A stretch of DNA of 64,000 nt, taken from the NCBI GenBank assembly GCA_012646185.1, contig GCA_012646185.1_4706.1; one strand, 5' to 3'. A model generated the notes under the pieces. It was not told where the DNA came from. It saw only the letters and a program-made list of their open reading frames with translations, and did no database searches. Source of the stretch: a phage. Positions within the stretch are counted from its first letter, which is position 1. Every line of letters starts with the position of its first letter. The position numbers and the translations under genes were made by a program. Of the stretch, positions 23,287 to 50,913 are shown one piece after another.

Positions 23287-23318
23287 CCTTCCTCCAACCC
23301 AACAGGGAAGGAGGAAGG
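23287..23318. terminator. conserved CT/GA hairpin (minus-strand reading CCTTCCTCCTTCCC-TGTT-GGGTTGGAGGAAGG)
   Basis: Directly downstream of the 23335..24228 stop. Confidence 0.6.
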
Positions 23319-23334
23319 GAGAGCTTGATTTTAA

Positions 23335-24228: not shown

Positions 24229-24369
24229 TTTCTACCTCTATGGTTGTTACATCACTCTCAAAAGATGTAACTGTTTACAGAAATTAATATATTTTATATT
24301 AACGTAAATAATATGGAGAACGACTCCGAATCTCCTTTTCGACCATCAAAAATCAGAGGACACATTATC

Positions 24370-24912: not shown

Positions 24913-25111
24913 TAAGCACATAGAGCAATAGTATGGGTTTTGTACAGCTCGGCTATTGCTCTTCTACAATTTGGTTGTAACAATCTGCGTGGTTGCACGC
25001 TTATCTTTCTCATTGAGCGCTTCGTATGAAGCGTGGTGTTGAAAGGGTTGTGGATCTCCTCAAGCGGCCAGGGACCCAGACCAACCTGAATAAACACGAA
25101 CACCTGTTAAG

Positions 25112-25143
25112 CCCCTCCTCATCCGTTATTGGGTGAGGAGGGG
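25112..25143. terminator. CT/GA hairpin variant (CCCCTCCTCA...TGAGGAGGGG)
   Basis: 10-bp perfect stem ~200 nt downstream of the 24370..24912 stop, between convergent genes. Confidence 0.55.
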
Positions 25144-25206
25144 TCTTATACGTCTTTATGCGTTCCGTTCGTTCTGGAGCGTTTTAGGACGGTTTACGGC
25201 AGGGTT

Positions 25207-25842
25207 TTATTCAACACTGAAACCGTTCAAACGAATAGCTTCATAACGCTTACGTTCACGTCGTTTACGCGCCTGCCAGCCGTAAATGAACTTCTCGTCT
25301 TTCTCACGACGTTCAGCTAATTCGATGTAATAGGTGCTCTGCATGTCCAGCATCGCGTCGATGAGATAATCCTTACCGGTTGCACCACGCTTAGAGATGT
25401 AAGCATCAAGAGCTGCCAGTGATTTGGGGCCCATTGCACCATCAGCATCAATATCTTTCCAGTAAGTTTGACGGTTATTCATGACGTTCAGATAACGCTG
25501 GAGGTTCTTAACCGCAACCGTTTTACCTGCATTGATACCCAGGTCAAAGAGACGGTCAGCTAAAAACACAGAACGTTTCATGACTTCGTCAAGTTTCATC
25601 TTATCCCAGAAGTGGGTCTTGTAGATAAAGAACGCCATTTCCGTGGTAAGGTTACGCATGTTACCGTCCCAGCCGAATTTCGTTTTCAGCGTGGTTTTGT
25701 ATTGATTGGCAAGCGCTTGCGTCACGCCGTGGTTCGTGATTCCGCCCGAGTCATCTGGATCGTCGACATAACCTGCCTCGATGCTGGTCTTGTCGCGAAT
25801 GATGAATTCGCAGGTGAAATCTTTTTCAGTAATCTTAGCCAT
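25207..25842 (-). CDS. endolysin, GH108-type muramidase with C-terminal peptidoglycan-binding region (211 aa)
   Basis: N-terminal EAGYVDDPDDSGGITNHGVT motif typical of GH108 lysozymes; GAGGAG SD. Confidence 0.8.
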   Translation of the reverse strand: MAKITEKDFTCEFIIRDKTSIEAGYVDDPDDSGGITNHGVTQALANQYKTTLKTKFGWDGNMRNLTTEMAFFIYKTHFWDKMKLDEVMKRSVFLADRLFDLGINAGKTVAVKNLQRYLNVMNNRQTYWKDIDADGAMGPKSLAALDAYISKRGATGKDYLIDAMLDMQSTYYIELAERREKDEKFIYGWQARKRRERKRYEAIRLNGFSVE

Positions 25843-25944
25843 TAGAACTCCTCGTTGGAATAACGATTTAGAGGAACAGGAAGGGTCTAGAACGCGATAA
25901 ACGATTTAATCCAAGCAAACCCCAGACTAAACTTTTCGAAGCGT

Positions 25945-25958
25945 TAGAACGCGTTCTA
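25945..25958. promoter_or_regulatory. 14-bp perfect palindrome TAGAACGCGTTCTA (operator candidate) with a TCTAGAACGCG half-site copy at ~25886
   Basis: Read directly; lies in the 126-bp gap upstream of the endolysin start. Confidence 0.4.
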
Positions 25959-25968
25959 GAGTGCAATA

Positions 25969-28017
25969 TCAAATACCCTTGGTTCCTTTCACGTGATGTG
26001 CGATTTCTTCAACCATTGCACGCAGAGCACGAAGCTGTTGGTCGTGTTCGTACCAACCACCTAACAGAACCCCGCTATACACCATGGTGTCAAGACTTAA
26101 CAGTCCTTTATCTGATACGTTGATCATTTCAGGGAACTGTTCTTGAACACGCTGTGCGATAACACCGATCTTCTCGACATCAGGATCGTAGTTGTGACGG
26201 AAACGGGCAAGCCCGCTGCGCGCCATTTCACGTAAACGTTCACTGAGAGATTCCGGATGATCTTTCAGATAACGGATGTCGTGTTTACTACGCTCATCCG
26301 AGCGAATGTAAGCGTTAGGAACATCGATATTGCTGTTGAAGTACAGCGCACTACCACCGCCTGCAGAGTTCCCCCAATAGAAGCGTGTGATCTCACCGCC
26401 GCCATTTTCCGTGATGATAACATGTTTACCTAAACGCGTACCACCATTACCATCAACGAAGACCAGTTTGTTTCCGCTGTAAGAACCCCAGAACAAGCGT
26501 GTATCGATGATGTGCGTCGCAGCGAGACGGGCGTTACGTGGTGTAGAATACACGGTGTTCACATCTTGCTGTGCATGCGCATCGGAAGCGATACCGTAGT
26601 TCTGTACGTTACCCAATCCTACCTGCGCTTTTGTAACAGCATGTGGGTTGTCTCGACGGTTAGCGTGAGCGTTAACCAGATCACCCGCTAATTTCTGAAT
26701 TGCCCAGTTGGTAGACTGTGGCGTCATGTAACGGTTCGTTGCAGAACCACCTTGCGCTTCAGCTTGGTTAGCGGTTGGATAGTTCTCAACACTTCCTAAC
26801 CCTACTTGTGCTTTAGACACTTGGTGTGGGTTATTCTTGTCAGCGATGTGTGCATTAAGCGGAACTAACGCAAAGGTCTCAATGGACGCTTTGGTTGTGT
26901 TCGGTGCCATTAATCGGTTAGCTGCAACACCGGCACGCGCTTCTTCTTCAGACGCCATTGGGTAGTCTTGCACATTCCCTAACCCAACCTGTGCTTTGGT
27001 CACCCTGTGTGGGTTGTTGTAATCGGCTTTATGCGCATTAAGTGGAATCAATGCGAACTGTTCGATCGCGGCAACGGTACGTAGCGGTGTCATGAAACGG
27101 TTGTTCGCTGTTCCGGCTTTCGCCTCATCATCCGAAGCGGTCGGGAAGTTATCAACGTTCCCAAGGTTAACCTGTGCTTTGGTGACGCTATGCGGGTTAT
27201 CCCGACGGTTAGCATGCGCGTCGACTAGATCGCCCGCCAGTTTAGCAATCGCCCATCCAACCGTTTGTGCGGTCATGTATCGGTCAGGTGCAGTACCGGC
27301 TTCTGCCTCCGCCTTGTTGGCGGTAGGATAGTTCTGTACGTTACCTAGTCCGACTTGGGCTTTTGTTACTTCGTGCGGGTTATCGGTACGGTTAGCATGC
27401 GCGTAATGCAGATCGGTCAGATCTTTATCCGCTGCTTGCATGTCTTTGCGTAGCTGATCGATTGCCGCCCAGAGACGGTTATCGGATGCGGCGTCACCGA
27501 TAAGTATTGCGGCTTTCAGTGAATAGATCGCTAAGCAAAGATGTTCGGTACCGTAGATAGCACTAACGTGGTGGATGTGTGGTTCAGGCGGATAGAGTTC
27601 CGGTTTGTTCTTGATGTCATCCCAGTTGATCGGACGATCGTCAAGTTTGAGTTCTTCGATAGCCTGATATAACGCGTCAATAAGACTTACGTAAACACCA
27701 CCGATGATACGATAGTCGTTAACTAATGTACCCTCGATATCATCGTTGATAATGGCGATGGCTGCACAGATTTCTTTACCCGCGTAAAGCGTTGCATCCT
27801 GATACAAGAAGATGGGTTTATAATCCACGCCTCGTACCAGTGTCTTACCGGTAAGCTTTTCAGTGATGACCAGACTTTCGGTGAAGAACGGTCCGCCATC
27901 GAGGGCGTAACATTTATTCTCGGTTCGTGGAACGGTATGCTCTTCACCAACGATGTGGTTGCTGGCGAGTGTACCGGTCCAGTCCTCGGGGTACTTCAGG
28001 GTAATTGGTGTCGACAT
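25969..28017 (-). CDS. tail fibre protein with phage fibre repeats and C-terminal S74-like intramolecular chaperone (682 aa)
   Basis: Five copies of NPHxVTKAQVGLGNVxNY repeat; C-terminal SDERSK motif resembling the autoproteolytic chaperone domain of endosialidase-type fibres. Confidence 0.85.
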   Translation of the reverse strand: MSTPITLKYPEDWTGTLASNHIVGEEHTVPRTENKCYALDGGPFFTESLVITEKLTGKTLVRGVDYKPIFLYQDATLYAGKEICAAIAIINDDIEGTLVNDYRIIGGVYVSLIDALYQAIEELKLDDRPINWDDIKNKPELYPPEPHIHHVSAIYGTEHLCLAIYSLKAAILIGDAASDNRLWAAIDQLRKDMQAADKDLTDLHYAHANRTDNPHEVTKAQVGLGNVQNYPTANKAEAEAGTAPDRYMTAQTVGWAIAKLAGDLVDAHANRRDNPHSVTKAQVNLGNVDNFPTASDDEAKAGTANNRFMTPLRTVAAIEQFALIPLNAHKADYNNPHRVTKAQVGLGNVQDYPMASEEEARAGVAANRLMAPNTTKASIETFALVPLNAHIADKNNPHQVSKAQVGLGSVENYPTANQAEAQGGSATNRYMTPQSTNWAIQKLAGDLVNAHANRRDNPHAVTKAQVGLGNVQNYGIASDAHAQQDVNTVYSTPRNARLAATHIIDTRLFWGSYSGNKLVFVDGNGGTRLGKHVIITENGGGEITRFYWGNSAGGGSALYFNSNIDVPNAYIRSDERSKHDIRYLKDHPESLSERLREMARSGLARFRHNYDPDVEKIGVIAQRVQEQFPEMINVSDKGLLSLDTMVYSGVLLGGWYEHDQQLRALRAMVEEIAHHVKGTKGI
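26520..27420. repeat. five tandem ~183-bp coding repeats (61-aa fibre repeat)
   Basis: GTGGGTT/GCGGGTT landmarks recur at ~183-bp spacing. Confidence 0.7.
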
Positions 28018-28030
28018 AACCTGGAGGTCC

Positions 28031-30634
28031 TTATAACGTGACTGTACCTAATTTGGTTGTCTTATTGAGATTAATGACAGAGATCTGGGTATCGCTGGTC
28101 GTGATGGTGCCAATATTAACGCGCTGTCCTTTATCATCTTCTTGCTTGTAGATGGTTAACTCCAGTTCTAACTGGTCGCCATTAGGAACAACGGAAACGT
28201 ACCATGTTTTATTACCTGGTGAACTATTATAGTCTTTTAGGTTATAATGACCTTTAGGTAAGGTCATGACCTTACCGGCAAACAAGCAAGTGATGTCTTC
28301 GTTGATGTAGATATCGTAACCGGAAGCAGCAACGACCGTAGAAACCATGTAACGGCTTTTAACAGCGAGAGCTTTATATTCCGCAACGGAATTACCGACA
28401 GCACTAAAGACCTGACCACCATTACCCATCACCGTAGAGACTGCGGTATCAACATAACCGATTCCCCACACTGGATGCACGTTCCAGCGCCAGCCGCTTG
28501 TCTGTAGGTAAGCATACATACCTTCAAATGCGATGGTTGTCCAGTTCCCATCGTTTTGTCGCCCAGCTCGGAACTGGTAGGTGTTCTGGTTCCCTGCAGC
28601 CTGCCGGGAATACGGAACATGTCCCGCAACAAGCCACCCATCACTCACCTTCTTGTAAGCTAATGCACCCCAGGCAGCATACTGACTACCGATAGTTGTT
28701 GTATCGGCTTCCTCGACATAACCCAGCAGTTTGGTTACACCCGTCACCGTAATAGCACCTTTACGTGCGGATACGGTAACTTCCGCAGCGATTCGTCCAT
28801 GTACGCGCGTGCTGTTATTACAGCCAGCAACAAACAGAATACAGGGTGCGTTTGTACCATCTGGAGGTACGGCTAACGCATGCTGCCACTGACTTACCCC
28901 TGATAACTTAGATCCTGTATATGCGTTCCACACGAGCTGTCCGCCTGCTTGCAGGTTGGCTGCGGTTATGCTGACGGCTTCACCGGAAGGTGCGAGTTTG
29001 GTGGCGTCATATCCGATATTACCGGATAAGTTTGAATCGGTTAAATAAGACCCGCTAACTACCGTATTGTCGTCACTTAAATGTACGGTTAGGAAAGGTC
29101 GCGACAACTGACCTGCGCTAACCACCACGTTGTTGGAAGGTGGAAAACCGTAAACGTCTATACCCTCACCTCGATAACGATAGCTAAGGTTCCAATCGTA
29201 GGTCACCAAACGGGCTTCGAAATTACCTTGCCCGCCAGCCGTACGCGAGTTAACGAAAACCTTGTTTTTAGCAAAGAAACCCAGGTAACCATGGGACGCA
29301 AGTGCACCGACGATACGATCGTCAACGCTTTTCCAGTTTGAGTCGTACTGTATTCCACCAGTAGGACCGAGTTTGGCAAGTTCGTCAAACACGTTTCCAG
29401 AGAAACCTCTGATAGTGTACGATCGTGCGTAGGGGGCGGATAAGTTGTCGTTTTGAATCACAGCGACTTGACCACGTTCATCGATTTCAATATTTCCCGT
29501 ACTGTTACCCGAACCCCACTGCCAGAAACCGTCATTATACCCGCTTGTCCCCGCCGTCGTGTTGGAAGGTCCTACCCAGTCTATTCCGCTATCGGTTGAC
29601 ACGTACGTGGATTGTCCAGCACCTGGGTTCATGCTGTAACTGTTGTTGGTGGTTTCAAAATCCAGATAGAACTGATGTACCCCGTTCTTTTGCTGATTTT
29701 TGCGGTTGTTTGTCCACCATGACGAAGCAATCAGAATACGTGCTTTCGTGCCTTTGGTTGCTGCATGCAGACGAATCTGAGCACGCCAGACGATTTGACC
29801 GATCCCGTCAGAAGGGAAATCATTCGTAGTTATGCGGTTGCAGACAATCATCTCGGCACTGTTGCTTATCGCCGTTCCTTCTATCGTTCTACCGCTAATA
29901 TTCGTAAGCTGCGTAGCCGCTACGCTGCCACCGCTGGGACCGATGGAAGATTTAGTTACGGTATAAACATTTAAGTAGAGTTTATAACTGTTAGTGCCAG
30001 CAATAGCGATGTAGATTTTACCGTTAATTTCCCAACAGCAGATATGCGGTGACGTATCAACAAAGTTGGCAAGACTACCATCGAGATACATGGCGACGTG
30101 TTTGGATGCATCAAACGTTCCGTCTGTCAATGCGATAAACATTTTAGGGCTGCTACCGTCTTCAAAAGCAGCTTGACCTAACATGATACCGTTCTGGTGA
30201 CAGTATATCACCGTAGGAATACGATCGAGCGTTGCGGGCTCATAGCGACGGCTGGTTGGAATAACTTCAGTGATCTGTCCGTTTTGATTTGTTTTACAGA
30301 TAACGTAGTAAACCCCTTTCTTTACGCTGTTCGTTGCCGAACGCAGTAACACGATAGTACCGTCGGATTCACGACATACGCCGTAACGACGATAGTCGAC
30401 GGTTAAGGCGATAGCACCATCAGCGGAGCCTTCGATTGCCAGAGGAAAATAACTTTGGTCCCCAACCTGTTCGATATCGGTTACGCCAATATCGATGTAT
30501 TTTTCCATCTCAGTGTTGAACTCAGCGGTACTGTAGGCACCGAGATCGCTCGCGTTTAGTCCCGTTGGATTGTTGCGACTGGCGATACGCGTAGTAACGC
30601 TATTCACCAGCTCGCTGAACTTTTTCATTGCCAT
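28031..30634 (-). CDS. tail fibre / receptor-binding protein (867 aa)
   Basis: N-terminal NNPTGLNASDLGA motif shared with neighbouring fibre genes; Gly/Ser/Thr/Asn-rich beta-type composition; position in fibre cluster. Confidence 0.6.
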   Translation of the reverse strand: MAMKKFSELVNSVTTRIASRNNPTGLNASDLGAYSTAEFNTEMEKYIDIGVTDIEQVGDQSYFPLAIEGSADGAIALTVDYRRYGVCRESDGTIVLLRSATNSVKKGVYYVICKTNQNGQITEVIPTSRRYEPATLDRIPTVIYCHQNGIMLGQAAFEDGSSPKMFIALTDGTFDASKHVAMYLDGSLANFVDTSPHICCWEINGKIYIAIAGTNSYKLYLNVYTVTKSSIGPSGGSVAATQLTNISGRTIEGTAISNSAEMIVCNRITTNDFPSDGIGQIVWRAQIRLHAATKGTKARILIASSWWTNNRKNQQKNGVHQFYLDFETTNNSYSMNPGAGQSTYVSTDSGIDWVGPSNTTAGTSGYNDGFWQWGSGNSTGNIEIDERGQVAVIQNDNLSAPYARSYTIRGFSGNVFDELAKLGPTGGIQYDSNWKSVDDRIVGALASHGYLGFFAKNKVFVNSRTAGGQGNFEARLVTYDWNLSYRYRGEGIDVYGFPPSNNVVVSAGQLSRPFLTVHLSDDNTVVSGSYLTDSNLSGNIGYDATKLAPSGEAVSITAANLQAGGQLVWNAYTGSKLSGVSQWQHALAVPPDGTNAPCILFVAGCNNSTRVHGRIAAEVTVSARKGAITVTGVTKLLGYVEEADTTTIGSQYAAWGALAYKKVSDGWLVAGHVPYSRQAAGNQNTYQFRAGRQNDGNWTTIAFEGMYAYLQTSGWRWNVHPVWGIGYVDTAVSTVMGNGGQVFSAVGNSVAEYKALAVKSRYMVSTVVAASGYDIYINEDITCLFAGKVMTLPKGHYNLKDYNSSPGNKTWYVSVVPNGDQLELELTIYKQEDDKGQRVNIGTITTSDTQISVINLNKTTKLGTVTL

Positions 30635-30646
30635 TATTCACCTCGA

Positions 30647-31132
30647 TTAAATAGGCGAGTCAGGAAGCTGTCCGTCGTCGATTTCAACGGTGCCGATCTT
30701 ACGTGTTGCCGCGAGGTGCACGGTACCCTGAATTTTGTTCCATGTCCCGATACGCATCACGTTTCTGTAATTACTGTTGCTATCTGTTAACGTGTAGGCG
30801 AAACCGCTATCGGTGACAGCAAGATAAACCCAGCCAACAGATTCACTTACACCAGACACATCCAACGTCGTTGCAGGAACAACACCCTCTTTGGTATTGT
30901 ATTCGGCAACACCTTCCGACAAACTTATTCTTCCGTTGTTGTAAGAACCAGACGGTACGATACGATCGCGACTGAAAAAAAGAAAGGGAAGGTAACGCTG
31001 GGTAACAAGCGGTGCAAGTTTAGGAGCCACTTCGGTCTTAACGTAGACATTTGTTTGTGCTGGCGTTACCTCGTGAGGGTTCTTTTGGGTGAGATACGCT
31101 CCCCATTCAGAAAGCAATGTTGATAGCTTCAT
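30647..31132 (-). CDS. tail-fibre-associated protein (161 aa)
   Basis: N-terminal KNPHEVTPAQ fibre-repeat-like motif; within fibre cluster. Confidence 0.5.
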   Translation of the reverse strand: MKLSTLLSEWGAYLTQKNPHEVTPAQTNVYVKTEVAPKLAPLVTQRYLPFLFFSRDRIVPSGSYNNGRISLSEGVAEYNTKEGVVPATTLDVSGVSESVGWVYLAVTDSGFAYTLTDSNSNYRNVMRIGTWNKIQGTVHLAATRKIGTVEIDDGQLPDSPI

Positions 31133-31703: not shown

Positions 31704-33857
31704 TTATAACGTTTCGAAGTCGGTTGCTTTGATAACCGCGTTGAAGTTGGCAAGGAATTCCTTAAGCAATGCTTGGAAGACATCACGAAACGCTGTGTTC
31801 GTCTGCAAGCTGGTTAAATAATCGTTCTTAAGGTAATCGCTCAGCTTACCGATCTTCTGCATCTTCTCGCCGTCTTGGTTCTCTCCAGGTTCTTGGCTGT
31901 TGATGTTAACCCATTTGATCCCTTCGAGATCGCCATCGGCAAGGAAGTTAGCGGGCGTCTCATCGTCGTTCAGGATTTTAATCGTGTCGCTGGATTCAAT
32001 ACCACCGTAAGCTTCCAGAAGCTGGTTGACTGTTAGCTTATTAGTGTTGATTGAACCATTGACACCATCGATACCGATGCCTGCACCTGTGATGGATGTC
32101 GCCGAAAGATCGATTGGTCCGGTTAACTTACCCCCGTTGATCGGTAACGCACCAACTTGCTCTGCGGTGTGTGTATGGTCAGCTAACGCCGCAAACGCCG
32201 TGATAGACTTATATGTCGAATACGGCGTCATATACGCTGATTGGTTGGTGTTGTCAGCCGCTTCAGTATCGGTAGCGACATTAAAGTTCTGCACGTTGCT
32301 GAGACCGACCTGCACCTTCGTTACTTCATGCGGGTTGTTCTTATTGACAACGTGTGCTGCAAAACCGTCACCGGCTAAAGCAGTGATTGCCGCTTTTGTC
32401 GCAGCCGGTGTCATATAGCGGTTGGTTGCTTCACCCGTTTGCGCCTCTTCGTCGGAAGCAACAGGATAGTTCTCAACGCTCCCCAACCCAACCTGAGATT
32501 TTGTTACTTGGTGTGGGTTTTCGGTATTCGCAATATGACTACTGAACCCTTGACCCGCCAGTTGCTCGATTGCGTAACGAACAAGTATTGGCGTCATGTA
32601 CTTGTTGTTAACCTGACCATCGATAGCTTCTTGGGTGGTGGCAACCCCGAAGTTTTGCACGCTCCCCAACCCAACTTGCGCTTTCGTAACAGCGTGAGGG
32701 TTATTGGTGTTACCGATGTGATCGGTAACCGTTGGGGTGATTAATCCTGCGATAGCGGCTGCCGTGGTCGCAGGGGTCATGTATTTATCGTTAGCAACAC
32801 CCGCAGCAGCTTCTACGTTAGATGCTACACCGTAGTTCAATACATTTCCTAACCCAACTTGAGCCTTGGTTACCCCGTGGGGGTTGTTCCTGTCTCCGGT
32901 ATGGGTTGTCAACGTAGCGTTGACATGATCGATACGCGTACTTAAGCCGTCGGTGATTGCTTTGATTGCGGCTCGTACACCCGCTGGTGTTGTGTACAGA
33001 TTGGTGGCCGTACCGGTAATGGTTGCATTACTATCGGCTGTACCGTAGTTCTCAACGTTTCCGAGTCCCACCTGGGCTTTCGTTACCTTGTGTGGGTTGT
33101 TATAGTTGCTGATGTGTGCAGCAGCACTATCACCACTCAGGTTAGCGATCATCTTACGCGTCATCGCCAACGTCATGTACAGATTTTCACCGATGGTTTC
33201 CAGATCGCTCTCGGTCGCCGTTGTGAAGTTCTGAACATTCCCCAAACCAACTTGTGCCTTGGTTACGCCATGTGGGTTATCGCGACGATTCTCGTGCTGC
33301 AGCAATGCGGTCATTGCTTTATTGAACCCTTCTTCAAGCGGTTCTTTCAATGATTCGATTGCAGCCACCACATCGTCCCACGTCATTGTGTCGGTTTCGA
33401 CATTATGTTGGTGGTTGATTGGCGGGAATACGGAAGGAACGTCAGCAACCTTTTCCCAGAACGTAACGCGGGGATCGTAAAGGTTGTTGGCTAAAACGTT
33501 AAGAATTTGTTGTTGATCAAGTGTAAACTCACCCCCCAGTGAATAGTAGTTCAGTTGCAACTGTCCACTGAATGCGGTGTCCAACAGCATGATGGAACCG
33601 TATAATTCCAGGCCGGTCAGCGCAGCCATGGCACGGAAGGGGTGAGTGCATAAAAAGTCAACGCCTTCTTCCAGATACGCGTTTGTTTCAGGGTTGTAGA
33701 TCTTTAACCCATTACGAAAATAGGGTGCGTATTTAGGAACGAGAAAGTTAAATCCGGTCCCCGTGGAAGGACGGACAGTGACGAGTTCTTCTGGAACCCA
33801 TGCGCCATCCAAATTCCCCTGCGGGTTATACGGAAGGCGTTTAATTTCATCTGTCAT
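31704..33857 (-). CDS. tail fibre protein with phage fibre repeats (717 aa)
   Basis: At least six copies of NPHxVTKAQVGLGNVxNF repeat. Confidence 0.85.
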   Translation of the reverse strand: MTDEIKRLPYNPQGNLDGAWVPEELVTVRPSTGTGFNFLVPKYAPYFRNGLKIYNPETNAYLEEGVDFLCTHPFRAMAALTGLELYGSIMLLDTAFSGQLQLNYYSLGGEFTLDQQQILNVLANNLYDPRVTFWEKVADVPSVFPPINHQHNVETDTMTWDDVVAAIESLKEPLEEGFNKAMTALLQHENRRDNPHGVTKAQVGLGNVQNFTTATESDLETIGENLYMTLAMTRKMIANLSGDSAAAHISNYNNPHKVTKAQVGLGNVENYGTADSNATITGTATNLYTTPAGVRAAIKAITDGLSTRIDHVNATLTTHTGDRNNPHGVTKAQVGLGNVLNYGVASNVEAAAGVANDKYMTPATTAAAIAGLITPTVTDHIGNTNNPHAVTKAQVGLGSVQNFGVATTQEAIDGQVNNKYMTPILVRYAIEQLAGQGFSSHIANTENPHQVTKSQVGLGSVENYPVASDEEAQTGEATNRYMTPAATKAAITALAGDGFAAHVVNKNNPHEVTKVQVGLSNVQNFNVATDTEAADNTNQSAYMTPYSTYKSITAFAALADHTHTAEQVGALPINGGKLTGPIDLSATSITGAGIGIDGVNGSINTNKLTVNQLLEAYGGIESSDTIKILNDDETPANFLADGDLEGIKWVNINSQEPGENQDGEKMQKIGKLSDYLKNDYLTSLQTNTAFRDVFQALLKEFLANFNAVIKATDFETL
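32180..33305. repeat. about six tandem ~183-bp coding repeats (fibre repeat)
   Basis: Periodic recurrence of the repeat at the DNA level, similar to 26520..27420. Confidence 0.7.
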
Positions 33858-33961: not shown

Positions 33962-35242
33962 ATGTATACATTGGTAAAAACTTACGGGTTACCCGTAGGT
34001 TCTGGCACGGCCTGGACAGCGCTTGAGGCGGGTGAAAGTGTCCTGAGTACGTTGTTCTCAACGTATCAAAAACTCAAGATCCAGGTCCATGAAAGCTATG
34101 CTGACCAGCAACAAGTTATTGATCTGTACGCGTTCCAATCCGAGCTTCAAAACAGTAGAGATACGCTTAATGCGTGGCTGAAGGCGAAATCGGATGCGCA
34201 TACCAACCTTCGAGGACAGCCTGGTGAACTGTCGATTAAAACCCACAAGCTTTATTGTCATGACGTTGTTACTGTAGGCTTTCTCCCTAAAGTCGGTAAT
34301 AGCGGTTATCATCCGAGCAACGCGATCCCTGAGTCGGAACGCACCGATATCCTGTTGACGAAAGCGAATACGAATTACGAAAATATCGGCAAACACTGCC
34401 TGTTCACCGTAGGTGGTTATGTTCATCCTCACGTCTACGGTAAAGACGTTGGTGTCTATATCCAGGGCGGGTTCAAGACGGCACAGCGTAGCCAAGAAAA
34501 CGATATCGGCATGATTGATTTTAGCCGTATCGGGAGTTTGGAAATCCATGCTATCACAGAAGAGATGATTGCTGATTCCACGAAGCTCTTGCCGTATAAG
34601 GACGAGATGTACTTGCGGTTACCGCGCAAGGTCGCCGAAGATGAAACCGTCGCGCTGGTGTTCGGGGGATATTTACATCTTCTTGACGATTGTTACACGA
34701 TCGTTAGTGACACGACAGCGAAAATAAACTGCATTAACATGTTTCTTTATGAAAGATACTTCCGTTCCCGCAAATACCTTGATCTAACATCTCTTGGTAT
34801 TCTGTTGAACGAAGAAGACCCACAGTCTGACATTGTTGCCAATCGTTTATTGTCGGATAAAGCATTAAAAGCGTGGGTGACGCATCCTTGCAGTTTCTGG
34901 GTGTATATCAAAGCAACATCGATTCAGGTTACGCAAGAACCCTTACCACGAAGTGGTGTACCAGGACAATATTTCTTAGGTAAGAAACCGGAAGGATTGA
35001 TTCGAGCTGATCTCGGCGAGTTACCGGCTTACGTGCAGACCTATGAAAAACCGTTATGGGTACTTCACTCGCGCTGGGGACTTCGTAAGAATATGTTGTT
35101 TGAAAATACGTTGTACAAACATACCCGCGTTAAGCGACTTAACGATACGCCTTATCTTCACCAGGTTTGGTTGGAAACGCATGCAACGTTGCAGACAGTA
35201 CACAAGCTCGAATTGATCGATTCCAGTCAGAAAAACAAATAA
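33962..35242 (+). CDS. hypothetical protein (426 aa)
   Basis: ATG with AAGGGGG SD; followed by conserved hairpin. Confidence 0.6.
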   Translation: MYTLVKTYGLPVGSGTAWTALEAGESVLSTLFSTYQKLKIQVHESYADQQQVIDLYAFQSELQNSRDTLNAWLKAKSDAHTNLRGQPGELSIKTHKLYCHDVVTVGFLPKVGNSGYHPSNAIPESERTDILLTKANTNYENIGKHCLFTVGGYVHPHVYGKDVGVYIQGGFKTAQRSQENDIGMIDFSRIGSLEIHAITEEMIADSTKLLPYKDEMYLRLPRKVAEDETVALVFGGYLHLLDDCYTIVSDTTAKINCINMFLYERYFRSRKYLDLTSLGILLNEEDPQSDIVANRLLSDKALKAWVTHPCSFWVYIKATSIQVTQEPLPRSGVPGQYFLGKKPEGLIRADLGELPAYVQTYEKPLWVLHSRWGLRKNMLFENTLYKHTRVKRLNDTPYLHQVWLETHATLQTVHKLELIDSSQKNK

Positions 35243-35293: not shown

Positions 35294-36199
35294 TTATGCT
35301 ACATATAACGTTAGATAACCATCGATGAGCGTATTCATCACACTGAGTTGGAGTACGACAGCTTTACTAACATCCGTACGTACACCGAACGGTAGTGTTT
35401 TGAATTGCTCTGGATCGGCTATTACTCTCGCGTTCTGCAAGTTGAGTGGTCCAGGCATTGACGACAATACCCAGCGATCGTTGACCATAAGGCCGTCGAT
35501 CTCTTCAGAGAGACCCAATTGCAGTGTGTTCATTTCTGCGATTAGTGCCTCCGATTGCGTATCGCCTGAGGTTAATGTGTACCCATCGGTAAGTGATGCC
35601 AGAACACCAGCAGATACGAACCAGTTGTACGAAACAATAGCGCCTGGGAGTTTACTGCTATCTCGATCGATGATATAATTCAACCCAGCCAACATATTGT
35701 TGCGAACGAGGTTGTTGAGGTCGTTATGTCCTGAGGTTAACTCAACAAGTAACTGACCAACCCATACTTGGTTACCAGGTTTAGGTGTTATCACAACCTG
35801 TATCGGTGACTTGGACTTATCCAGATCCGCGTCGACAATCTCGGTTTTGTTGAGAAGGATACCGTACGTCGATGCTAAGACAGGTAGGATCTCAGAGACC
35901 TTGGTTAATGCATCTAAGGTTTCGATCTCGATGGGCCAGTGGTGCTGTCCGCCAGGCCAAGTACCCAGTTTACCAAGATCGATGCGGTTATAATAGATGT
36001 CGACAGAGTTCACCAGCCCTGAACCCGGTTGGGGATGCACGGTTAACTTGCTGTTACGCTTGTACCCTGTGCTTTCAGAAGCCTCACCGATAACCAGTTT
36101 ATCCAGCGTTACGCCTCGAGCATCGAAATCGCTATGCTTTCGAATCAGCCGAAAGAGGATTTCTTTCGATTCTAACCCCAGGATTTCACTGTACTCCAT
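35294..36199 (-). CDS. virion-type protein, paralog-family member (301 aa)
   Basis: AAGGGGTG SD; YKRN...YYNRIDLG...STYGILL motifs shared with paralogs. Confidence 0.6.
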   Translation of the reverse strand: MEYSEILGLESKEILFRLIRKHSDFDARGVTLDKLVIGEASESTGYKRNSKLTVHPQPGSGLVNSVDIYYNRIDLGKLGTWPGGQHHWPIEIETLDALTKVSEILPVLASTYGILLNKTEIVDADLDKSKSPIQVVITPKPGNQVWVGQLLVELTSGHNDLNNLVRNNMLAGLNYIIDRDSSKLPGAIVSYNWFVSAGVLASLTDGYTLTSGDTQSEALIAEMNTLQLGLSEEIDGLMVNDRWVLSSMPGPLNLQNARVIADPEQFKTLPFGVRTDVSKAVVLQLSVMNTLIDGYLTLYVA

Positions 36200-36214
36200 T
36201 TAACACCCCTTAGG

Positions 36215-37099
36215 TTACGGTAGGATTTCTGCGCCCGTCGGGCCTGCCTTACGAGCTTCCAACGCACCAAGGTCGTATTTCAGCGTCAGCGTATCGTTGG
36301 TGGTATAAAGGTTGTGGTAAGTCGAAATCAGATCGGTAACCTGCGCGCCGACGATTTCGTTCATGTCGAAGGCTGAACCTTGACCATCATCAGCACGAAC
36401 GATTTTATCGCCAGCAGAGACCATCCCAATTTCAGAAATAACCGCGTACTCTTCACCACCTTCGGTGAGTTTAGCTACATTGAGATATTCGTTAATATCC
36501 CACGGCGTCCAAACCAAAGAGACTTTACAGCTGTAGTCGTAGTACTCTCCGGTTGCTACCAGAATTCCGGTTGTTGGGATATCCGGTCGGGCAGGGTTGA
36601 GGTTCGCGTCGGTTGGGTGCCATTCGATGGTCTGAGCGACGCCGTCGACGTATTTGGTATAACGCATGGAGCGGACAACGTTATCGAAATCGATCCGGCG
36701 ACCGTAATAACAGATATACTTTTTACCGCTTTCCAGTGTCTCAATACGACGTAACCCAAATTTAGCGCGTTCGTCTGTGGTCAAATCGTTACCAACTTCA
36801 CGCATTACGAAAGGCTTGATTTTCCACGGTGAAAGATCGCTTGCTTCGTGAGCGATCGGCATCGAGGAAGGGATACCGTTAGCGTTGCGGATGAATTCAT
36901 GACCTTGGTTGCCGATACAGAAGTAACGTACAGCAGGATTACCCTCGGGGTAAACCTTTGATTGAATCTGAAGTTTTTCATTCAAGGTGCTGTGTTCTTC
37001 CCATGCATGAGGAAGACCGAGCGTAAGGTTAGTTTGTACTTGACCGCCGATAATCGTACGGACGATACGATCGGTAGCACGGATTTGTGTAGAAGCCAT
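36215..37099 (-). CDS. hypothetical structural-module protein (294 aa)
   Basis: ATG with AGGAAAAG SD; only weak similarity to the flanking paralogs. Confidence 0.6.
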   Translation of the reverse strand: MASTQIRATDRIVRTIIGGQVQTNLTLGLPHAWEEHSTLNEKLQIQSKVYPEGNPAVRYFCIGNQGHEFIRNANGIPSSMPIAHEASDLSPWKIKPFVMREVGNDLTTDERAKFGLRRIETLESGKKYICYYGRRIDFDNVVRSMRYTKYVDGVAQTIEWHPTDANLNPARPDIPTTGILVATGEYYDYSCKVSLVWTPWDINEYLNVAKLTEGGEEYAVISEIGMVSAGDKIVRADDGQGSAFDMNEIVGAQVTDLISTYHNLYTTNDTLTLKYDLGALEARKAGPTGAEILP

Positions 37100-37115
37100 G
37101 TCTTTTCCTATTTAA

Positions 37116-37967
37116 TCAGTTATATTGCATCAACAGGATACCGCCGTAGTTCGTGCAGTAATCTTGGCTAAGCGTAACGATAACAGCGTTAGCGAACGCA
37201 GGGTTAACCGGATAACCCTGTGCGATAAGTTCTGTTGTTTTACCGGTTGCAAGCACGGTGGCTCCGTAAAGGTTGTTTTCGTCTTCACGGCCGTTATAAA
37301 CCCATGGGGTTGGCGCAACGTTGTTGAATAAGCTAACCATTGCGCTTAAATTACCGCCAACTTTTAACCCGGCGAGATCGGAACGGATAGCCGTACAGTC
37401 TATAGCGTAACTGTAGACCAGTGCCTGGATACGATTTGCGGTGTAGTACGGGAAATTGAGGCCGGTCATCACCGTGGACTTCATCATCCCCGCAACATCG
37501 TGGGCACTATCGAGGAGATAGAACGTAACACTTCCCGTCCAAGCCAATCCGGTTGTTTTCAACTCTACGGTGTGAGGGAACGGATATTCATCACCTCGTA
37601 CAATCGGAGAATCGACGCAGCTATCCTGATCGATAACGATTCCGTACGTTGATTGAATCAGAGGGATAAGATCGTGCGTCGTTTTAACCCCAGCATCGAT
37701 AGCAAGCTTCGGTTCCATTCCCAAGAAGAAGTCTTGGATAGGGATACGATCGTACCACACGTAGCTGCTTTCACGGTATTGTGCTGGTGTTACTGTTGCC
37801 GAAGGTGATACCTTAGCGCGTGTGTTCCGTTTATACGCGTGGTTTCCGTTTTCAGCAACATCCGTGATATCAAGTGCATCGAAGTTAAAGTCGAAGTCAG
37901 GATTGGCTGCCTGAATAAGTTCAGCGACCAGTACTTTAGGACTTTTGTTTAACAATTTCTGACTCAT
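37116..37967 (-). CDS. virion-type protein, paralog-family member (283 aa)
   Basis: AAGGA SD; YKRN...WYDRIPI...STYGIVI...LAWTGSV motifs. Confidence 0.6.
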   Translation of the reverse strand: MSQKLLNKSPKVLVAELIQAANPDFDFNFDALDITDVAENGNHAYKRNTRAKVSPSATVTPAQYRESSYVWYDRIPIQDFFLGMEPKLAIDAGVKTTHDLIPLIQSTYGIVIDQDSCVDSPIVRGDEYPFPHTVELKTTGLAWTGSVTFYLLDSAHDVAGMMKSTVMTGLNFPYYTANRIQALVYSYAIDCTAIRSDLAGLKVGGNLSAMVSLFNNVAPTPWVYNGREDENNLYGATVLATGKTTELIAQGYPVNPAFANAVIVTLSQDYCTNYGGILLMQYN

Positions 37968-37977
37968 TGTTTATTCC

Positions 37978-38913
37978 TTAGCCTTGTTCTTCTGGAGAAC
38001 GACCCTGGAGGCTTGCGGTATGTCCGTCGACGTTGTAATAGAAAATCAATGGACCGCCGACGGCAGTACAGTAGTTTTCATCCAGACCGATCTCGATACC
38101 GTATTGGTAACCTGCTCGTGCTGGAATACGTCCGCCTAACTCGCCGTTGAAAGCCACTTTAGCGTTATACAGGTTATACGGTGCGATGTTGTCGTCTAAC
38201 ACCCAACGATCGGCGGTCATTTCAGCCAGAAGATCGGCGACCACCACATCGCTAATGACCGTACCTGTTACCAGCGAAGCTAGCAACTCACCGTAATCAG
38301 AAGTATCACGACTGTAACTGTAGATCTCACCGCTAGCGCGTACGCCCTGTCCGAAGAACTTAAGACCATCAAGCTCTTTGATCGCGATAATATCATCAAG
38401 ATTCGGTACACGCGACTTCATCAAGATACGAACACTTCCCGTCCAAGCCAGGCAGTTAGATGCGACACGAAGCAATTGTCCGTTAACGGTATCCCAGTTA
38501 AGTTCGTCGTTGACGATTTCCTCCGCGGTAAGGCCAAGACCGAAACGTTCTTTGATGATAGGCCAGATATCACGCATCTTGGTGGCGTCTGGCGCATCGA
38601 TAAGAATAGGCGCTACGTTACGCAGATACGCACCGATATTGATACGATCGTAATACAGCGTCGTCGAACCTTCGTAATCGTCTAACTCAGTAAGCTTAGC
38701 GGTTGCTGTCGCCGTAATCTGGGTGTCGCGCTCATAGGCGCTTTGGTTGGTGGTTGGTGTTCCTAAAACCAATAATTCAGGGGTTAGGATATGCTCTCCG
38801 TTCTGAGGTGGGTTATCGTGGTTGATAAGACCATACACGAGATCGGATGAGGGTAAAGAGACGTCGACCGGGTAAAGTTCGGTGTCGTCAATAGTTGTTA
38901 CCGTATCACTCAC
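37978..38913 (-). CDS. virion-type protein, paralog-family member (311 aa, GTG start)
   Basis: GTG preceded by strong GAGGAGG SD; YERD...YYDRINIG...ERFGLGL...LAWTGSV motifs. Confidence 0.6.
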   Translation of the reverse strand: MSDTVTTIDDTELYPVDVSLPSSDLVYGLINHDNPPQNGEHILTPELLVLGTPTTNQSAYERDTQITATATAKLTELDDYEGSTTLYYDRINIGAYLRNVAPILIDAPDATKMRDIWPIIKERFGLGLTAEEIVNDELNWDTVNGQLLRVASNCLAWTGSVRILMKSRVPNLDDIIAIKELDGLKFFGQGVRASGEIYSYSRDTSDYGELLASLVTGTVISDVVVADLLAEMTADRWVLDDNIAPYNLYNAKVAFNGELGGRIPARAGYQYGIEIGLDENYCTAVGGPLIFYYNVDGHTASLQGRSPEEQG

Positions 38914-38972: not shown

Positions 38973-41384
38973 TTAAACGTCCTCGATAGGCAAAGGTTTA
39001 ACAATCAAACGATTGAGCGGATTCGATAGACGCATACTGATAGGCTTATACGCAGCATGATTCGTCTCACTTAGAGCCACTGATCTGAAACGACCGTTCA
39101 ACTGTTTGTAAATCGGTTCTATCCAGAGACCTCGAAGATCACGTTTACGGAAACGTTGTTCGAACGGTTTGATTGGGGTTACGGTTAACCCACGCAACGA
39201 CTCTGACGGCAGACGCTCACGAAGGTCGCGTGGTGCCCGACCTGGGAACGGTGCAAGCCACAACCCGTCAAGCGGATTTTTACGGAAACGTAACGAGACA
39301 GGATCACTAATGACTTGTGCCCAATATTGCGTACTGAATCGAACGGTTTGGGTATTCTCGTAACCGCTACAGTCACACCAGGTTGGTTTCGGAGGTGCTT
39401 CCAAACTTTCAACCGCTGATTCACGCCAGTTCGTCATCGGGTTGTTATCATGTACGAATTTGATAACTTCCGTAGCCTGGTTATCCGTATCATGAACGTT
39501 TGCCTGTGCCCAGTCTTCCCACAGTTCTTCACTACCACTTACTAAACTCGAACCAAGACGAACGGCGATTTTGTTTAGTGGTTTGATTGGATCACTGTTG
39601 ATTGTCTGGATAAAATGGATGGTGTAACTGCTCAATGTCTTAAGCAGCTGCAGCATTCCGTATTGAATATCCTTAAGACTGGTGACATCTTCCAAATCTT
39701 GACCGGTGGCCTTTGTGAAGATATCGAGAGCCAGAATTCCCGCCTCTTCTTGACTGATTGCGTCAAGCTCCCAATCCATCGCTAAGAACCATTCCTTGTA
39801 AAGCTGCCCAATACCGAAGTCGACACCAACATCCATGTAAAAGTTTTCAACGATTGCTTCAGCCATACCTCGAGCTTGATAATGCTCTTGGAGCTGGTAC
39901 ATGAACTGATGACGACGCCAGCCCTGGTAGATCTCGGTAACGGCGGTCAGAAACTCTTCAGTACTGACGACCGGACGCAATGTTACTTGCTTATCCAAAC
40001 ACCACCAGATCAGTTTATCGGGAATGATAGCAGGATCGGTAATGCTACGGAGATGGTCGAATGTCGGTAGCGTTAACACCCTGACGTGGTTAGCATGGAT
40101 CTTAGGTACTTCAATCAGCGTCATGCCCATCGAATAGTTCAGCAAATACAAGAACAGCTTGTAGGCATCTTTCATCGACATCGTCATGGTATCACCCGTC
40201 ACCGGGTTGGTTGTCGTTAACCGTGACTGATACATGCCTATCGCGCTAAGATGAATCCATTCGTTCAGCAGGAAATCATACTTAGGATACAGTTCACTGT
40301 CTGTAAGGTCTTCGGCTTCACTTTCCAACACCTTGGTCGTTAAGGTATTGTTGTCGTGCATCGACATCTTCTCTATCGTGCGGTTAAGCTCGGTATAATA
40401 CTCCGCTTCGTTATCCCGCGCTAGAGGGAACTGTTGTTGCATCACGGTAGTGACCTTACGTCTTACCGTGCCATTACCGACGATCTCTTGAAGGTTAAGC
40501 GGTTTACGCTCCATGTAAACAGCAGGTTTTAACGTCTGGGGTATCTCGGAAGCGTCTTGTTTGATCGAGAACGCACCGATTGGAATCCCACGATCGGTTA
40601 ATACCTTTTGAATGAGCTTATCGTAGTTTTCCGTTCTGCCCATGTTTCTTTCAACGTAAGCGATGTTACGATAGAACCAGAGCATTTGGGATTCGGTCAT
40701 GTATCGCTTGAATCGATCAAGACCTTGATGACTTGCCAGATAACTCCAGATATGGAAGCTATGGGCATAATGGGTATGACAGTTTTCCCAACGAATACCT
40801 TTTATCATCTCAGGTATTTGTGTGAATAGGATGGCGTATAGCGCAGGCCAATGAAGCATATCGACGCTCTCGTATGCCGGATGTTCCCAGCGTCTGAAGT
40901 AATCGTCGATTTCTTGCTGTAAACGTGGAATAAGATTGGCCTCGCGCGACTCAACCTCTTGTGTATCGTACCAGAGAATCTCATGATTGCGTGCCGCAAT
41001 TGCTTTCTCGATATCGATGGGGTTAAGGATACCCAAGATCAACATACGTTGTTCCGGGTACCGCGCAATTAAACGATTGAAATAATCTCCACCATACGCG
41101 TATTCCCTTGCCGTCATGCGATGCCGTAACATGTTTTCCTTAGTGAACTCGATCTCTTCGAGCGTATCCAGGGAATTTACGGTCATCATTGTCTGACAAG
41201 GATGATACTCGCCAGCGAGATTCATGTAGTATAACCACGTGCGTGGGTCGTCCCCGACGGCCATCTGGTAGACTTCGGAAACCTTGAGGTTTAACCGTTC
41301 TGCCGTGATGTCGCTTTTAATAATCAGGGTGTCCGTTAGACGCTGCACGCTTTCCGAATAAAGCTGATAGTCAGTGTTGGACAC
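38973..41384 (-). CDS. large hypothetical protein (about 803 aa; start uncertain)
   Basis: Long ORF; track start 41453 is TTG without SD, first in-frame ATG is at 41264; GTG at 41384 has a GGAGGA SD but that sequence would also be coding if translation begins upstream; C-terminal tandem RFRK-x-L-x-GLW motif. Confidence 0.45.
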   Translation of the reverse strand: MSNTDYQLYSESVQRLTDTLIIKSDITAERLNLKVSEVYQMAVGDDPRTWLYYMNLAGEYHPCQTMMTVNSLDTLEEIEFTKENMLRHRMTAREYAYGGDYFNRLIARYPEQRMLILGILNPIDIEKAIAARNHEILWYDTQEVESREANLIPRLQQEIDDYFRRWEHPAYESVDMLHWPALYAILFTQIPEMIKGIRWENCHTHYAHSFHIWSYLASHQGLDRFKRYMTESQMLWFYRNIAYVERNMGRTENYDKLIQKVLTDRGIPIGAFSIKQDASEIPQTLKPAVYMERKPLNLQEIVGNGTVRRKVTTVMQQQFPLARDNEAEYYTELNRTIEKMSMHDNNTLTTKVLESEAEDLTDSELYPKYDFLLNEWIHLSAIGMYQSRLTTTNPVTGDTMTMSMKDAYKLFLYLLNYSMGMTLIEVPKIHANHVRVLTLPTFDHLRSITDPAIIPDKLIWWCLDKQVTLRPVVSTEEFLTAVTEIYQGWRRHQFMYQLQEHYQARGMAEAIVENFYMDVGVDFGIGQLYKEWFLAMDWELDAISQEEAGILALDIFTKATGQDLEDVTSLKDIQYGMLQLLKTLSSYTIHFIQTINSDPIKPLNKIAVRLGSSLVSGSEELWEDWAQANVHDTDNQATEVIKFVHDNNPMTNWRESAVESLEAPPKPTWCDCSGYENTQTVRFSTQYWAQVISDPVSLRFRKNPLDGLWLAPFPGRAPRDLRERLPSESLRGLTVTPIKPFEQRFRKRDLRGLWIEPIYKQLNGRFRSVALSETNHAAYKPISMRLSNPLNRLIVKPLPIEDV

Positions 41385-50814: not shown

Positions 50815-50913
50815 CTGACTTATGTATCACGGTGCCGGATGAATGTCCGGTGCAATGAAACCATCCGCAACGTTGTCGTCAAGAATATCGTCCAACGAAG
50901 CAGCTACGGTAGT

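Follow-up and report, generated by a model that had tools for sequence, protein, structure and literature searches.

DUF7941 virion paralogs of a Goslar-like jumbo phage and their possible assembly into baseplate filaments

Introduction

What do three neighboring genes for ~300-aa proteins, and a fourth about 12 kb away, contribute to the virion of the phage that encodes them? The window analyzed here, a 64,000-nucleotide stretch of phage DNA (assembly GCA_012646185.1), is ~97% identical to the DNA of Escherichia phage Goslar, and it derives from a chimallivirus, or nucleus-forming jumbo phage, of the Goslar type. A preliminary description made from the sequence alone had read the four products as old, unequally expressed paralogs, in an expansion typical of ejected or internal-body proteins or of fibre adaptors. 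The family itself is already known, as Paralog family B of phage SPN3US (2017), from the phiKZ atlas of 2026, and from a Goslar preprint of the same year that names the five Goslar counterparts of the genes described below as one family (Basu et al., bioRxiv 10.64898/2026.04.21.720040). The preprint makes no mention of the SPN3US work, and none of the papers we found links the baseplate "fibre cloud" model with the SPN3US head assignment.

Here, we show that the window encodes five members of the Pfam family DUF7941 (PF25613), and that equating this family with SPN3US Paralog family B exposes a standing conflict between a head and a baseplate location. We further describe an operon shared across genera, a codon-bias ranking that follows copy number, and a roughly five-fold elevation of dN in the two abundant subunits that spares their interdomain linker.

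Five DUF7941 paralogs at two loci

The genes considered here are as follows.

23335..24228, minus strand: abundant full-length DUF7941 paralog of 297 aa; Goslar homolog gp22, at ~580 copies per virion
24370..24912, plus strand: truncated DUF7941 protein, 180 aa, NTD and linker without CTD; homolog of Goslar gp23
33962..35242, plus strand: homolog of phiKZ gp130, an outer-baseplate star-lobe connector (E = 5e-26); convergent with the cluster
35294..36199, minus strand: full-length DUF7941 paralog of 301 aa; Goslar homolog gp31, at ~8 copies per virion
36215..37099, minus strand: DUF7208 protein, 294 aa, not DUF7941; homolog of Goslar gp32 and phiKZ gp139
37116..37967, minus strand: full-length DUF7941 paralog of 283 aa; Goslar homolog gp33, at ~112 copies per virion
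37978..38913, minus strand: full-length DUF7941 paralog of 311 aa with a GTG start; Goslar homolog gp34, at ~27 copies per virion
38973..41384, minus strand: baseplate wedge protein, homolog of Goslar gp35 and phiKZ gp128; heads the co-directional run gp35-gp34-gp33-gp32-gp31

The four full-length copies are exact ORFs corresponding to the annotated Goslar CDS gp031, gp033, gp034 and gp022. Pairwise BLASTP among them gave E-values of 8e-19 to 5e-9 at 21–26% identity. The preliminary description had proposed comparing its family with shuffled controls; Smith-Waterman scores of 122–192 lie 14–29 SD above shuffled means of 34–39, and in 300 shuffles per pair no shuffled score was as high as the real one. 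All four match DUF7941 over their full length (E = 5.8e-47 to 9.7e-63), with profile scores of 190, 161, 213 and 173 bits, and the truncated fifth copy scores 76 bits, all above the curated gathering score of 27 bits. Individual matches include the gp31 homolog (E = 8.5e-56 over residues 6–299), the gp33 homolog (E = 5.8e-47; PHROG 1037, E = 8e-60), the gp22 homolog (E = 1.4e-50) and the gp23 homolog (E = 3.6e-21 over profile positions 4–174 of 276; E = 8e-56 by HMM scan). The window's DUF7941 proteins match PHROG 1037 or 2935, annotated as "virion structural protein". The four ORFs and the shorter fifth copy are thus real DUF7941 paralogs. A chance or composition-driven resemblance between unrelated ~300-aa ORFs, to which the pairwise identity of just 21–26% might lend some color, is refuted as the source of the shared motifs by the shuffle controls (z = 14–29), Pfam E-values down to 1e-63, the absence of the ordered motif pair from 20,000 shuffles per protein and the common architecture of both AF2 models (gp34 and gp22 homologs), and we consider it virtually impossible.

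The gp23 homolog had been overlooked in the preliminary description, and a six-frame search of the window with a family HMM, covering every ORF of 50 aa or more, found no members beyond the five. The gene at 36215..37099, which lies among the paralogs, was rejected as a member: it scores z ~0 against them, matches DUF7208 (E = 1.8e-96) and is 34% identical to phiKZ gp139 (E = 4e-50). Two details of the motif set reported earlier required correction. YKRN/YERD, described as common to all four copies, occurs in the three cluster copies and is absent from 23335..24228. LAW(T/Y)GSV, described as missing from the 35294 copy, is instead degenerate there (QVWVGQL); this form fits a family-wide pattern, aromatic-x-G-(S/Q/T), and resembles LGWIGQQ and IGWVGQA of SPN3US paralogs. 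An Rfam scan of the whole window returned 0 matches.

A conserved linker joins two domains

Full-length members consist of an alpha/beta NTD of ~155 residues, a linker of ~25 and a CTD of ~105, and all four previously noted motifs fall within the NTD. In the AF2 model of the gp34 homolog the NTD spans residues 10–165, the linker 166–192 (pLDDT 45–62) and the CTD 193–297; the gp22 homolog (pLDDT 86) has the same layout, and both models have a pTM of 0.53, typical for two mobile domains. The linker is intrinsically flexible; for all its low pLDDT, its conservation equals that of the folded domains, and it includes a conserved D-L-x3-hydrophobic-x4-L-x-G-L segment in gp22. Origin of the CTD by internal duplication of the NTD was rejected (hhalign probability 0.6%).

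The NTD has the fold that phiKZ gp127 shows in the baseplate (PDB 9xqd), and a PDB fold search yielded no distant relatives beyond it. Matches in BFVD are of three kinds: some are full length, others consist of the NTD alone, and in the third the NTD is part of a larger "tail" or "tail fiber" protein.

The cluster lies in an operon conserved across genera

By tblastn, the family was found in 124 phage records, all of them jumbo phages of 197–307 kb, and the named BFVD matches are all chimalliviruses; InterPro DUF7941 matches in Spiroplasma proteins are mentioned in one paper. "Hairy" jumbo phages were dropped as a morphological correlate, as the reports found concern Rak2/CBB-type phages and not chimalliviruses.

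The order wedge-DUF7941-DUF7941-DUF7208 spoke-DUF7941, with a gp130-like gene on the opposite strand, is common to the window and Erwinia phage RAY, in which gp7–gp11 form the corresponding run and gp16 is the opposite-strand homolog of 33962..35242. The wedge gene itself is 99.4% identical to Goslar gp035 and 35% identical to phiKZ gp128 (E = 2e-119), and in phiKZ gp128, gp127 and gp126 are also adjacent. This wedge-DUF7941-DUF7941-spoke-DUF7941 operon is kept across genera. The gp34 and gp33 homologs are reciprocal best hits of RAY gp8 and gp9, which together with the shared gene order places the duplications before the split of the two genera, in line with the old duplications postulated earlier. 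The positional pair of gp31 and RAY gp11 lacks reciprocal-best-hit status.

Comparison with related phages

Goslar gp22, gp23, gp31, gp33 and gp34 are direct orthologs of the window's genes, with the same order and lengths; the sole difference is that gp22 and gp23 are ~8% diverged, against ~1% for their neighbors. phiKZ is more distant. It has only ~3 members (gp126, gp127 and gp143) compared with ten in Goslar, these are only 14–24% identical to the window paralogs, and its spoke gene gp139 does not lie between paralogs, unlike the DUF7208 gene of the window. One-to-one orthology to gp126, gp127 or gp143 could not be resolved, as several paralogs score similar bits; gp127, for example, finds the gp22 (6e-11) and gp33 (1e-8) homologs as top matches. 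For gp127 this want of a clear ortholog among the window's paralogs counts against the baseplate model discussed below.

SPN3US Paralog family B comprises gp83, gp138–154, gp160/161 and gp237 (Ali et al. 2017, PMC5694885). We found that SPN3US gp138–145, 148, 151, 154 and 160 are DUF7941 proteins (gp141, E = 1e-84; gp160, E = 7e-11), with gp141 the closest match of the gp22 homolog, and conclude that DUF7941 is Paralog family B. SPN3US shows a tandem paralog expansion as in the window, with 20–21 members, two of which, one of ~300 aa and one of ~175 aa, reach high abundance, much as gp22 and gp23 do.

Codon bias tracks virion copy number, and the abundant pair evolves faster than the operon paralogs

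The preliminary description had taken the stronger codon bias of the distal copy to imply a different abundance, and both parts hold. The gp22 homolog has an Fop of 0.66 and an Nc of 42.5, against 0.49–0.58 and 47–59 for the cluster copies and window means of 0.55 and 50.8. The gp31 homolog (0.49 and 59) is the least biased and most divergent copy, and the gp23 homolog (0.855 and 34.5) comes near the major capsid protein. Label-free mass spectrometry (LFQ-MS) of Goslar gave 2144 copies per virion for gp23, 577 for gp22, 112 for gp33, 27 for gp34 and 8.5 for gp31. The most abundant member, gp23, is thus present at ~2140 copies, gp22 at ~580 compared with 8–110 for the cluster copies, and the DUF7941 proteins of a Goslar virion number in the thousands. 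The Fop order agrees with the published copy-number order for five of five members. As a prediction from letters alone, the earlier reading was right on paralogy, old duplication and abundance from codon bias, and the result obtained here is mainly confirmatory.

Amino acid identity to Goslar is 98.2–98.7% for the gp31, gp33 and gp34 homologs (98.2% for gp33), 92.6% for gp22 and 91.7% for gp23. Between this phage and Goslar, dN of gp22 and gp23 is ~5-fold above that of the operon paralogs (dN/dS for gp22, 0.25), and the substitutions separating the two phages spare the linker.

A baseplate-rooted filament is the favored model

The Goslar preprint proposes that these proteins form head-to-tail filaments as a baseplate "fibre cloud" (bioRxiv 10.64898/2026.04.21.720040). 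It reports that purified recombinant gp22 self-polymerises into filaments by negative stain, and presents AlphaFold3 head-to-tail dimers and a fit of gp126-gp127 into unexplained phiKZ density. In phiKZ, gp139 dimers build the baseplate spoke, which is capped by gp127; in the structure of the outer peripheral baseplate (PDB 9xqd), five such dimers make up a band that "terminates at gp127", and each star lobe has a single gp127. Carbohydrate-binding, glycosidase or LRR domains are present in some members of the family.

Joined to the homology, domain architecture, gp127 fold match, synteny and codon-bias gradient observed here, these data favor a model to which, as a whole, we assign a probability of about 0.6. 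DUF7941 members would polymerise head-to-tail, and the resulting long flexible filaments would root at the outer tips of the six DUF7208-built baseplate spokes. The low-copy gp31, gp34 and gp33, co-transcribed with wedge and spoke genes, would be the probable anchoring or adaptor subunits, and the strongly codon-biased gp22 and gp23 would provide the bulk of the polymer. Both the tethering of the abundant subunits to the baseplate and the identity of the anchor are inferred; our candidate for the latter is gp31, in view of its ~6–8 copies and its divergent NTD strand. The head-to-tail interface is the one predicted by AlphaFold, and the conserved, substitution-spared linker may lend polymerisation indirect support. 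Filaments of this kind may serve in host search and recognition, as the carbohydrate-binding and LRR domains appended to members elsewhere in the genome suggest. DUF7941 may then be a chimallivirus-specific host-finding device, so that its location and polymerisation would matter for jumbo-phage adsorption and host-range engineering.

Of the two roles offered by the preliminary description, that of a fibre adaptor comes closest: gp127 sits at the outer spoke end, gp22 forms filaments and carbohydrate-binding domains occur in the family, although the SPN3US data described below place the family on tailless heads. The ejected or internal-body role finds no support. The inner-body proteins of family PF12699 (phiKZ gp93–97, Goslar gp53–58, SPN3US Paralog family A) are likewise chimallivirus virion paralogs with very unequal copy numbers; they are protease-processed, injected and encoded elsewhere in the genome. 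A PF12699 profile gave 0 matches at E ≤ 1 to the five DUF7941 proteins and the DUF7208 protein. The proteins known to be cleaved in SPN3US (gp45, 47, 50, 53, 54, 75, 81 and 245) include no family B member, and peptide coverage of gp141 is 94%.

Head-associated and free-filament alternatives

The strongest competitor places the family on the capsid, either inside the head and possibly ejected or on its surface, with the phiKZ gp127 site as an exception or a mis-assignment. In SPN3US, gp138–154, gp160 and others are present at or above wild-type levels in the tailless mutants 64_112(am27) and 255(am107) (PMC5694885), from which its authors assigned family B to the head. These heads were CsCl-purified from two different tail mutants, and gp141 and gp160 exceed 300 copies each. 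The very high copy numbers point the same way, as does the peripheral baseplate map of Goslar, which has no DUF7941 density and thereby also counts against the filament model. By contrast, the NTD of phiKZ gp127 is modelled in the outer baseplate, where extra density fits gp126-gp127, and in Goslar-like phages as well as in RAY and phiKZ the cluster genes are part of the baseplate operon. The lack of PF12699 similarity and of proteolytic processing argues against a head location as well, the appended carbohydrate-binding, glycosidase or LRR domains suit an external role, and no density is attributed to the family in the models of the Goslar capsid, vertex and portal. On balance we regard a capsid location as unlikely, at perhaps one chance in five.

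Somewhat less probable still is a division of roles, in which only gp31, gp33 and gp34 belong to the baseplate and the fast-evolving gp22/gp23 polymer is a separate head-associated or inter-virion matrix, such as a particle coat or a tie within late-infection bouquets. If so, this polymer would not be a baseplate-rooted host-search appendage.

We give the lowest standing of the three to gp22 and gp23 as free cytoplasmic, non-virion filaments that co-purify with particles and aid assembly, for example in late "bouquets", with only the low-copy cluster paralogs as baseplate components. Recombinant gp22 polymerises alone, and the Goslar virion preparation also held the large non-virion assemblies chimallin and PhuZ, so self-assembled filaments could merely co-purify, a point that also weighs against the baseplate-rooted model. 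Sticky filaments would be compatible with the presence of the family on tailless SPN3US heads, and gp22 and gp23 lie ~11 kb from the baseplate cluster and have the ~5-fold faster dN. However, dual CsCl gradients should part protein-only filaments from DNA-filled particles, and the proposed role is our own conjecture.

Expression signals

Scans for sigma-70 promoters and for terminators near the two loci gave signals at or below shuffle expectation, the expected outcome in a phage that has RNA polymerases of its own. The gp23 homolog is transcribed divergently from the gp22 homolog, and its ATG is preceded by the RBS AGAGGA.

Identity of the family members

The cluster at 35294..38913 is 97.7% identical to DNA of Escherichia phage vB_EcoM_Goslar, one of the nucleus-forming jumbo phages (chimalliviruses), and about 43 kb of the window aligns with Goslar at ~96.5% identity (Goslar position + 7507 = window position). 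The four open reading frames (ORFs) of the preliminary description proved exact, each corresponding to an annotated Goslar gene, and by searching every six-frame ORF of the window with a family HMM we identified exactly one further member, which spans only positions 4-174 of the 276-position DUF7941 profile.

DUF7941 members in the window, named after their Goslar homologs
35294..36199, gp31 (Goslar gp031)
37116..37967, gp33 (Goslar gp033)
37978..38913, gp34 (Goslar gp034)
23335..24228, minus strand, gp22 (Goslar gp022), the distal copy
24370..24912, plus strand, gp23 (Goslar gp023), 180 aa, found with the family HMM

The four longer copies match Pfam DUF7941 (PF25613) over its full length (E 5.8e-47 to 9.7e-63) and PHROG 1037, "virion structural protein". 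They share only 21-26% identity (pairwise BLASTP E 8e-19 to 5e-9), and their Smith-Waterman scores of 122-192, against 34-39 ± 5-6 for shuffled sequences (z 14-29; 0/300 shuffles as high for any pair), uphold the claimed paralogy. Within the cluster, the central gene (36215..37099) is not a paralog, scoring z ~0 against the family and matching DUF7208 instead (E 1.8e-96).

Conserved motifs and fold

All four motifs initially ascribed to the family fall in the N-terminal domain. We found (Y/W/T)Y(D/N/H)R(I/L) and x(Y/F)G(I/L/M) in 5/5 members, and 20,000 shuffles of each member failed to yield the ordered motif pair. YKRN/YERD, by contrast, had been assigned to all four copies and is confined to the three in the cluster. 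LAWTGSV, said to be absent from gp31, is present there as QVWVGQL, which lies inside a family pattern, aromatic-x-G-(S/Q/T), also present in SPN3US, RAY and phiKZ relatives. This motif forms the final beta-strand of the N-terminal domain, directly ahead of a linker.

An AlphaFold2 model of gp34 built from a 45-sequence alignment (mean pLDDT 80, pTM 0.53) places a confidently predicted alpha/beta domain at the N-terminus (residues 10-165), from which a linker modelled with low confidence (166-192) leads to a C-terminal domain (193-297); the gp22 model has an identical layout (pLDDT 86). Among 18 family members the linker is as conserved as the folded domains, which would suit a segment that becomes ordered only upon partner binding; it is also kept in gp23. 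The N- and C-terminal domains are not homologs of each other.

A profile of the five proteins matched one sequence in the PDB, phiKZ gp127 (9xqd; E 6e-17, full length), whose chain was also the only Foldseek match (E 3e-5). The 86 viral matches in BFVD (E <= 1e-3), of which every named one is a chimallivirus, fall into full-length proteins (~270-310 aa), N-terminal domains alone (~145-190 aa) and N-terminal domains fused into larger proteins (400-870 aa) that carry tail or tail-fibre annotations. DUF7941 InterPro matches were reported in 2026 in Spaid-like proteins of a male-killing Spiroplasma and in gut Spiroplasma species (PMC13375240), contradicting the Goslar preprint, which states that only chimalliviruses have the module. 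A sub-threshold match to the Spiralin domain of Spiroplasma (E 3e-4) was obtained for SPN3US gp160 (L006:12240-12767).

Genomic context and age of the duplications

Five genes run co-directionally, with the cluster as their distal part: gp35 (wedge protein, 35% identity to phiKZ gp128, E 2e-119), gp34 and gp33, gp32 (spoke protein, 34% identity to phiKZ gp139, E 4e-50) and, last, gp31; gp30, a homolog of phiKZ gp130, is convergent with this run. Erwinia phage RAY has the same order (gp7 wedge, gp8, gp9, gp10 DUF7208, gp11, with gp16 opposite), and gp34 with RAY gp8 and gp33 with RAY gp9 are reciprocal best hits. The duplications therefore predate the split of the two genera and are old, as had been proposed from their low identity. 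In phiKZ, gp128, gp127 and gp126 are neighbours, and the truncated gp143 adjoins the endolysin gp144, as gp23 adjoins an endolysin in the window.

SPN3US has DUF7941 members in a long tandem array. Its gp145-gp153 (L005:11577-16442, L006:397-5657) comprise a three-gene cassette repeated three times, in which a protein of ~470-500 aa, whose N-terminal domain is DUF7941 and whose C-terminus is of unknown type, is followed by proteins of ~330 aa and then ~300 aa. The latter two have no Pfam match, and Ali et al. place both in Paralog family B (PMC5694885).

Codon bias and abundance

The stronger codon bias of the distal copy, taken to imply a different abundance, is borne out (Fop 0.664 versus 0.493-0.579 in the cluster), and the pattern is sharper than claimed. 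Ordering the five members by Fop reproduces their order by Goslar copy number, although rank agreement with n = 5 is only suggestive.

Codon bias in the window (baseline of ~60 genes: mean Fop 0.55, Nc 50.8) and Goslar copies per virion from label-free mass spectrometry (bioRxiv 10.64898/2026.04.21.720040)
gp23: Fop 0.855, Nc 34.5, ~2144 copies
gp22: Fop 0.664, Nc 42.5, ~577 copies
gp33: Fop 0.579, Nc 47.4, ~112 copies
gp34: Fop 0.554, Nc 47.7, ~27 copies
gp31: Fop 0.493, Nc 59.1, ~8.5 copies
Major capsid protein: Fop 0.87, Nc 30.1

The major capsid protein gene (50914..53136, minus strand, 740 aa) is overlapped along its entire length by an antisense ORF of 766 aa without stops (50839..53139, plus strand). 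This ORF is probably a by-product of the gene's extreme codon bias (Nc 30, Fop 0.87), through which codons complementary to a stop are avoided.

Divergence from Goslar

Relative to Goslar, gp22 retains 92.6% amino acid identity (dN 0.040, dN/dS 0.25) and gp23 91.7% (dN 0.046, dN/dS 0.40), both with dS 0.12-0.16; the values for gp31, gp33 and gp34 are 98.2-98.7% (dN 0.007-0.009, dS 0.06-0.11, dN/dS 0.08-0.12). Substitutions in gp22 and gp23 are chiefly polar-to-polar and at the surface, and they spare both the linker and the final strand of the N-terminal domain: gp23 carries none beyond residue 128, and E184D is the only one in gp22 residues 136-209. This pattern, from one genome pair, fits exposed, loosely constrained subunit surfaces combined with a constrained docking element.

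Both genes lie within a divergence hot spot (21704..31132) flanked by genes with 97-100% identity to Goslar, which suggests mosaic exchange within the block. Protein identity is just 60.5% for gp21 (blastn alignment interrupted at 22053-22398), 82% for gp27 (dS 0.78), 93% for gp26 and 94% for the gp24 endolysin. The gp25 and gp29 homologs (25969..28017 and 31704..33857, both minus strand) are large tail-fibre-like, YomR-like proteins with Peptidase_S74, containing many tandem copies of a ~45-aa motif, "NNPHxVTKAQVGLGNVxNY...A..G....YMTP", with internal DNA repeats of ~72% identity.

Filament model and the conflicting head assignment

The paralog family is already known, as the Goslar preprint covers a near-identical phage and lists gp22, gp23, gp31, gp33, gp34, gp86, gp91-93 and gp161 as DUF7941 proteins (bioRxiv 10.64898/2026.04.21.720040). 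In that work purified gp22 formed filaments by negative stain, head-to-tail dimers were predicted in which the next N-terminal domain docks the linker and C-terminal domain, gp32 was shown to form the spokes, unexplained phiKZ density was fitted with a gp126-gp127 dimer, and a "DUF7941 fiber cloud", anchored at the baseplate, was proposed to recognise hosts. The phiKZ outer baseplate has one gp127 per star lobe, ending a band of five gp139 dimers (PMC13250141).

The best explanation, to which we give a probability of about 0.6, is that DUF7941 proteins join head-to-tail as filaments rooted at the spoke tips, with the operon paralogs gp31, gp33 and gp34 serving as anchors or adaptors and gp22 and gp23 as bulk subunits. 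Our confidence is held at this level by SPN3US, whose Paralog family B (20 members; gp141 and gp160 at >300 copies each) was placed in the head, "Head ejection?", because it was present in tailless mutant particles (PMC5694885). The authors of that work returned to the question in 2023 with the tail-tube amber mutant 255(am107) and, from its dual-CsCl-purified heads, still listed 21 Paralog B proteins among those of the head (PMC10052503). We verified DUF7941 membership for SPN3US gp138-145, 148, 151, 154 and 160; gp141 is the closest SPN3US match to gp22, and gp160, an N-terminal-only protein of 175 aa, resembles gp23. The Goslar preprint mentions neither SPN3US nor tailless particles, and by its authors' own remark their preparation contained non-virion assemblies. 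Head and baseplate assignments of the abundant members are therefore in conflict. Overall, the observation stands with minor corrections and its interpretation holds in part: a virion paralog family with differing abundance was correctly recognised, and of the functions first offered a fibre-related role is the best supported, with no support for an inner-body role.

Surroundings and orthologs of gp22

The two most abundant members, gp22 and gp23, diverge from a shared 141-bp intergenic region (24229..24369). An upstream ATG at 24313 would extend gp23 by 19 residues, but the Goslar annotation and an AGAGGA ribosome-binding site favour the start at 24370. Between the gp22 stop and the gp21 start lies an 848-nt AT-rich gap (22487..23334) with no ORF >= 60 aa and no Rfam match, likewise without an annotated gene in Goslar. 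It contains a strong hairpin directly after gp22 (CCTTCCTCC...GGAGGAAGG, then a T-rich tail) and a second GC hairpin beyond it.

Orthologs of gp22 (P0006, P0018, P0019, P0030, P0048) occur on 236-249 kb contigs in NCBI isolate assemblies labelled Salmonella enterica, Shigella flexneri or E. coli. Sequencing data from bacterial isolates thus contain complete Goslar-like jumbo phage genomes, owing to either a carrier state or contamination.
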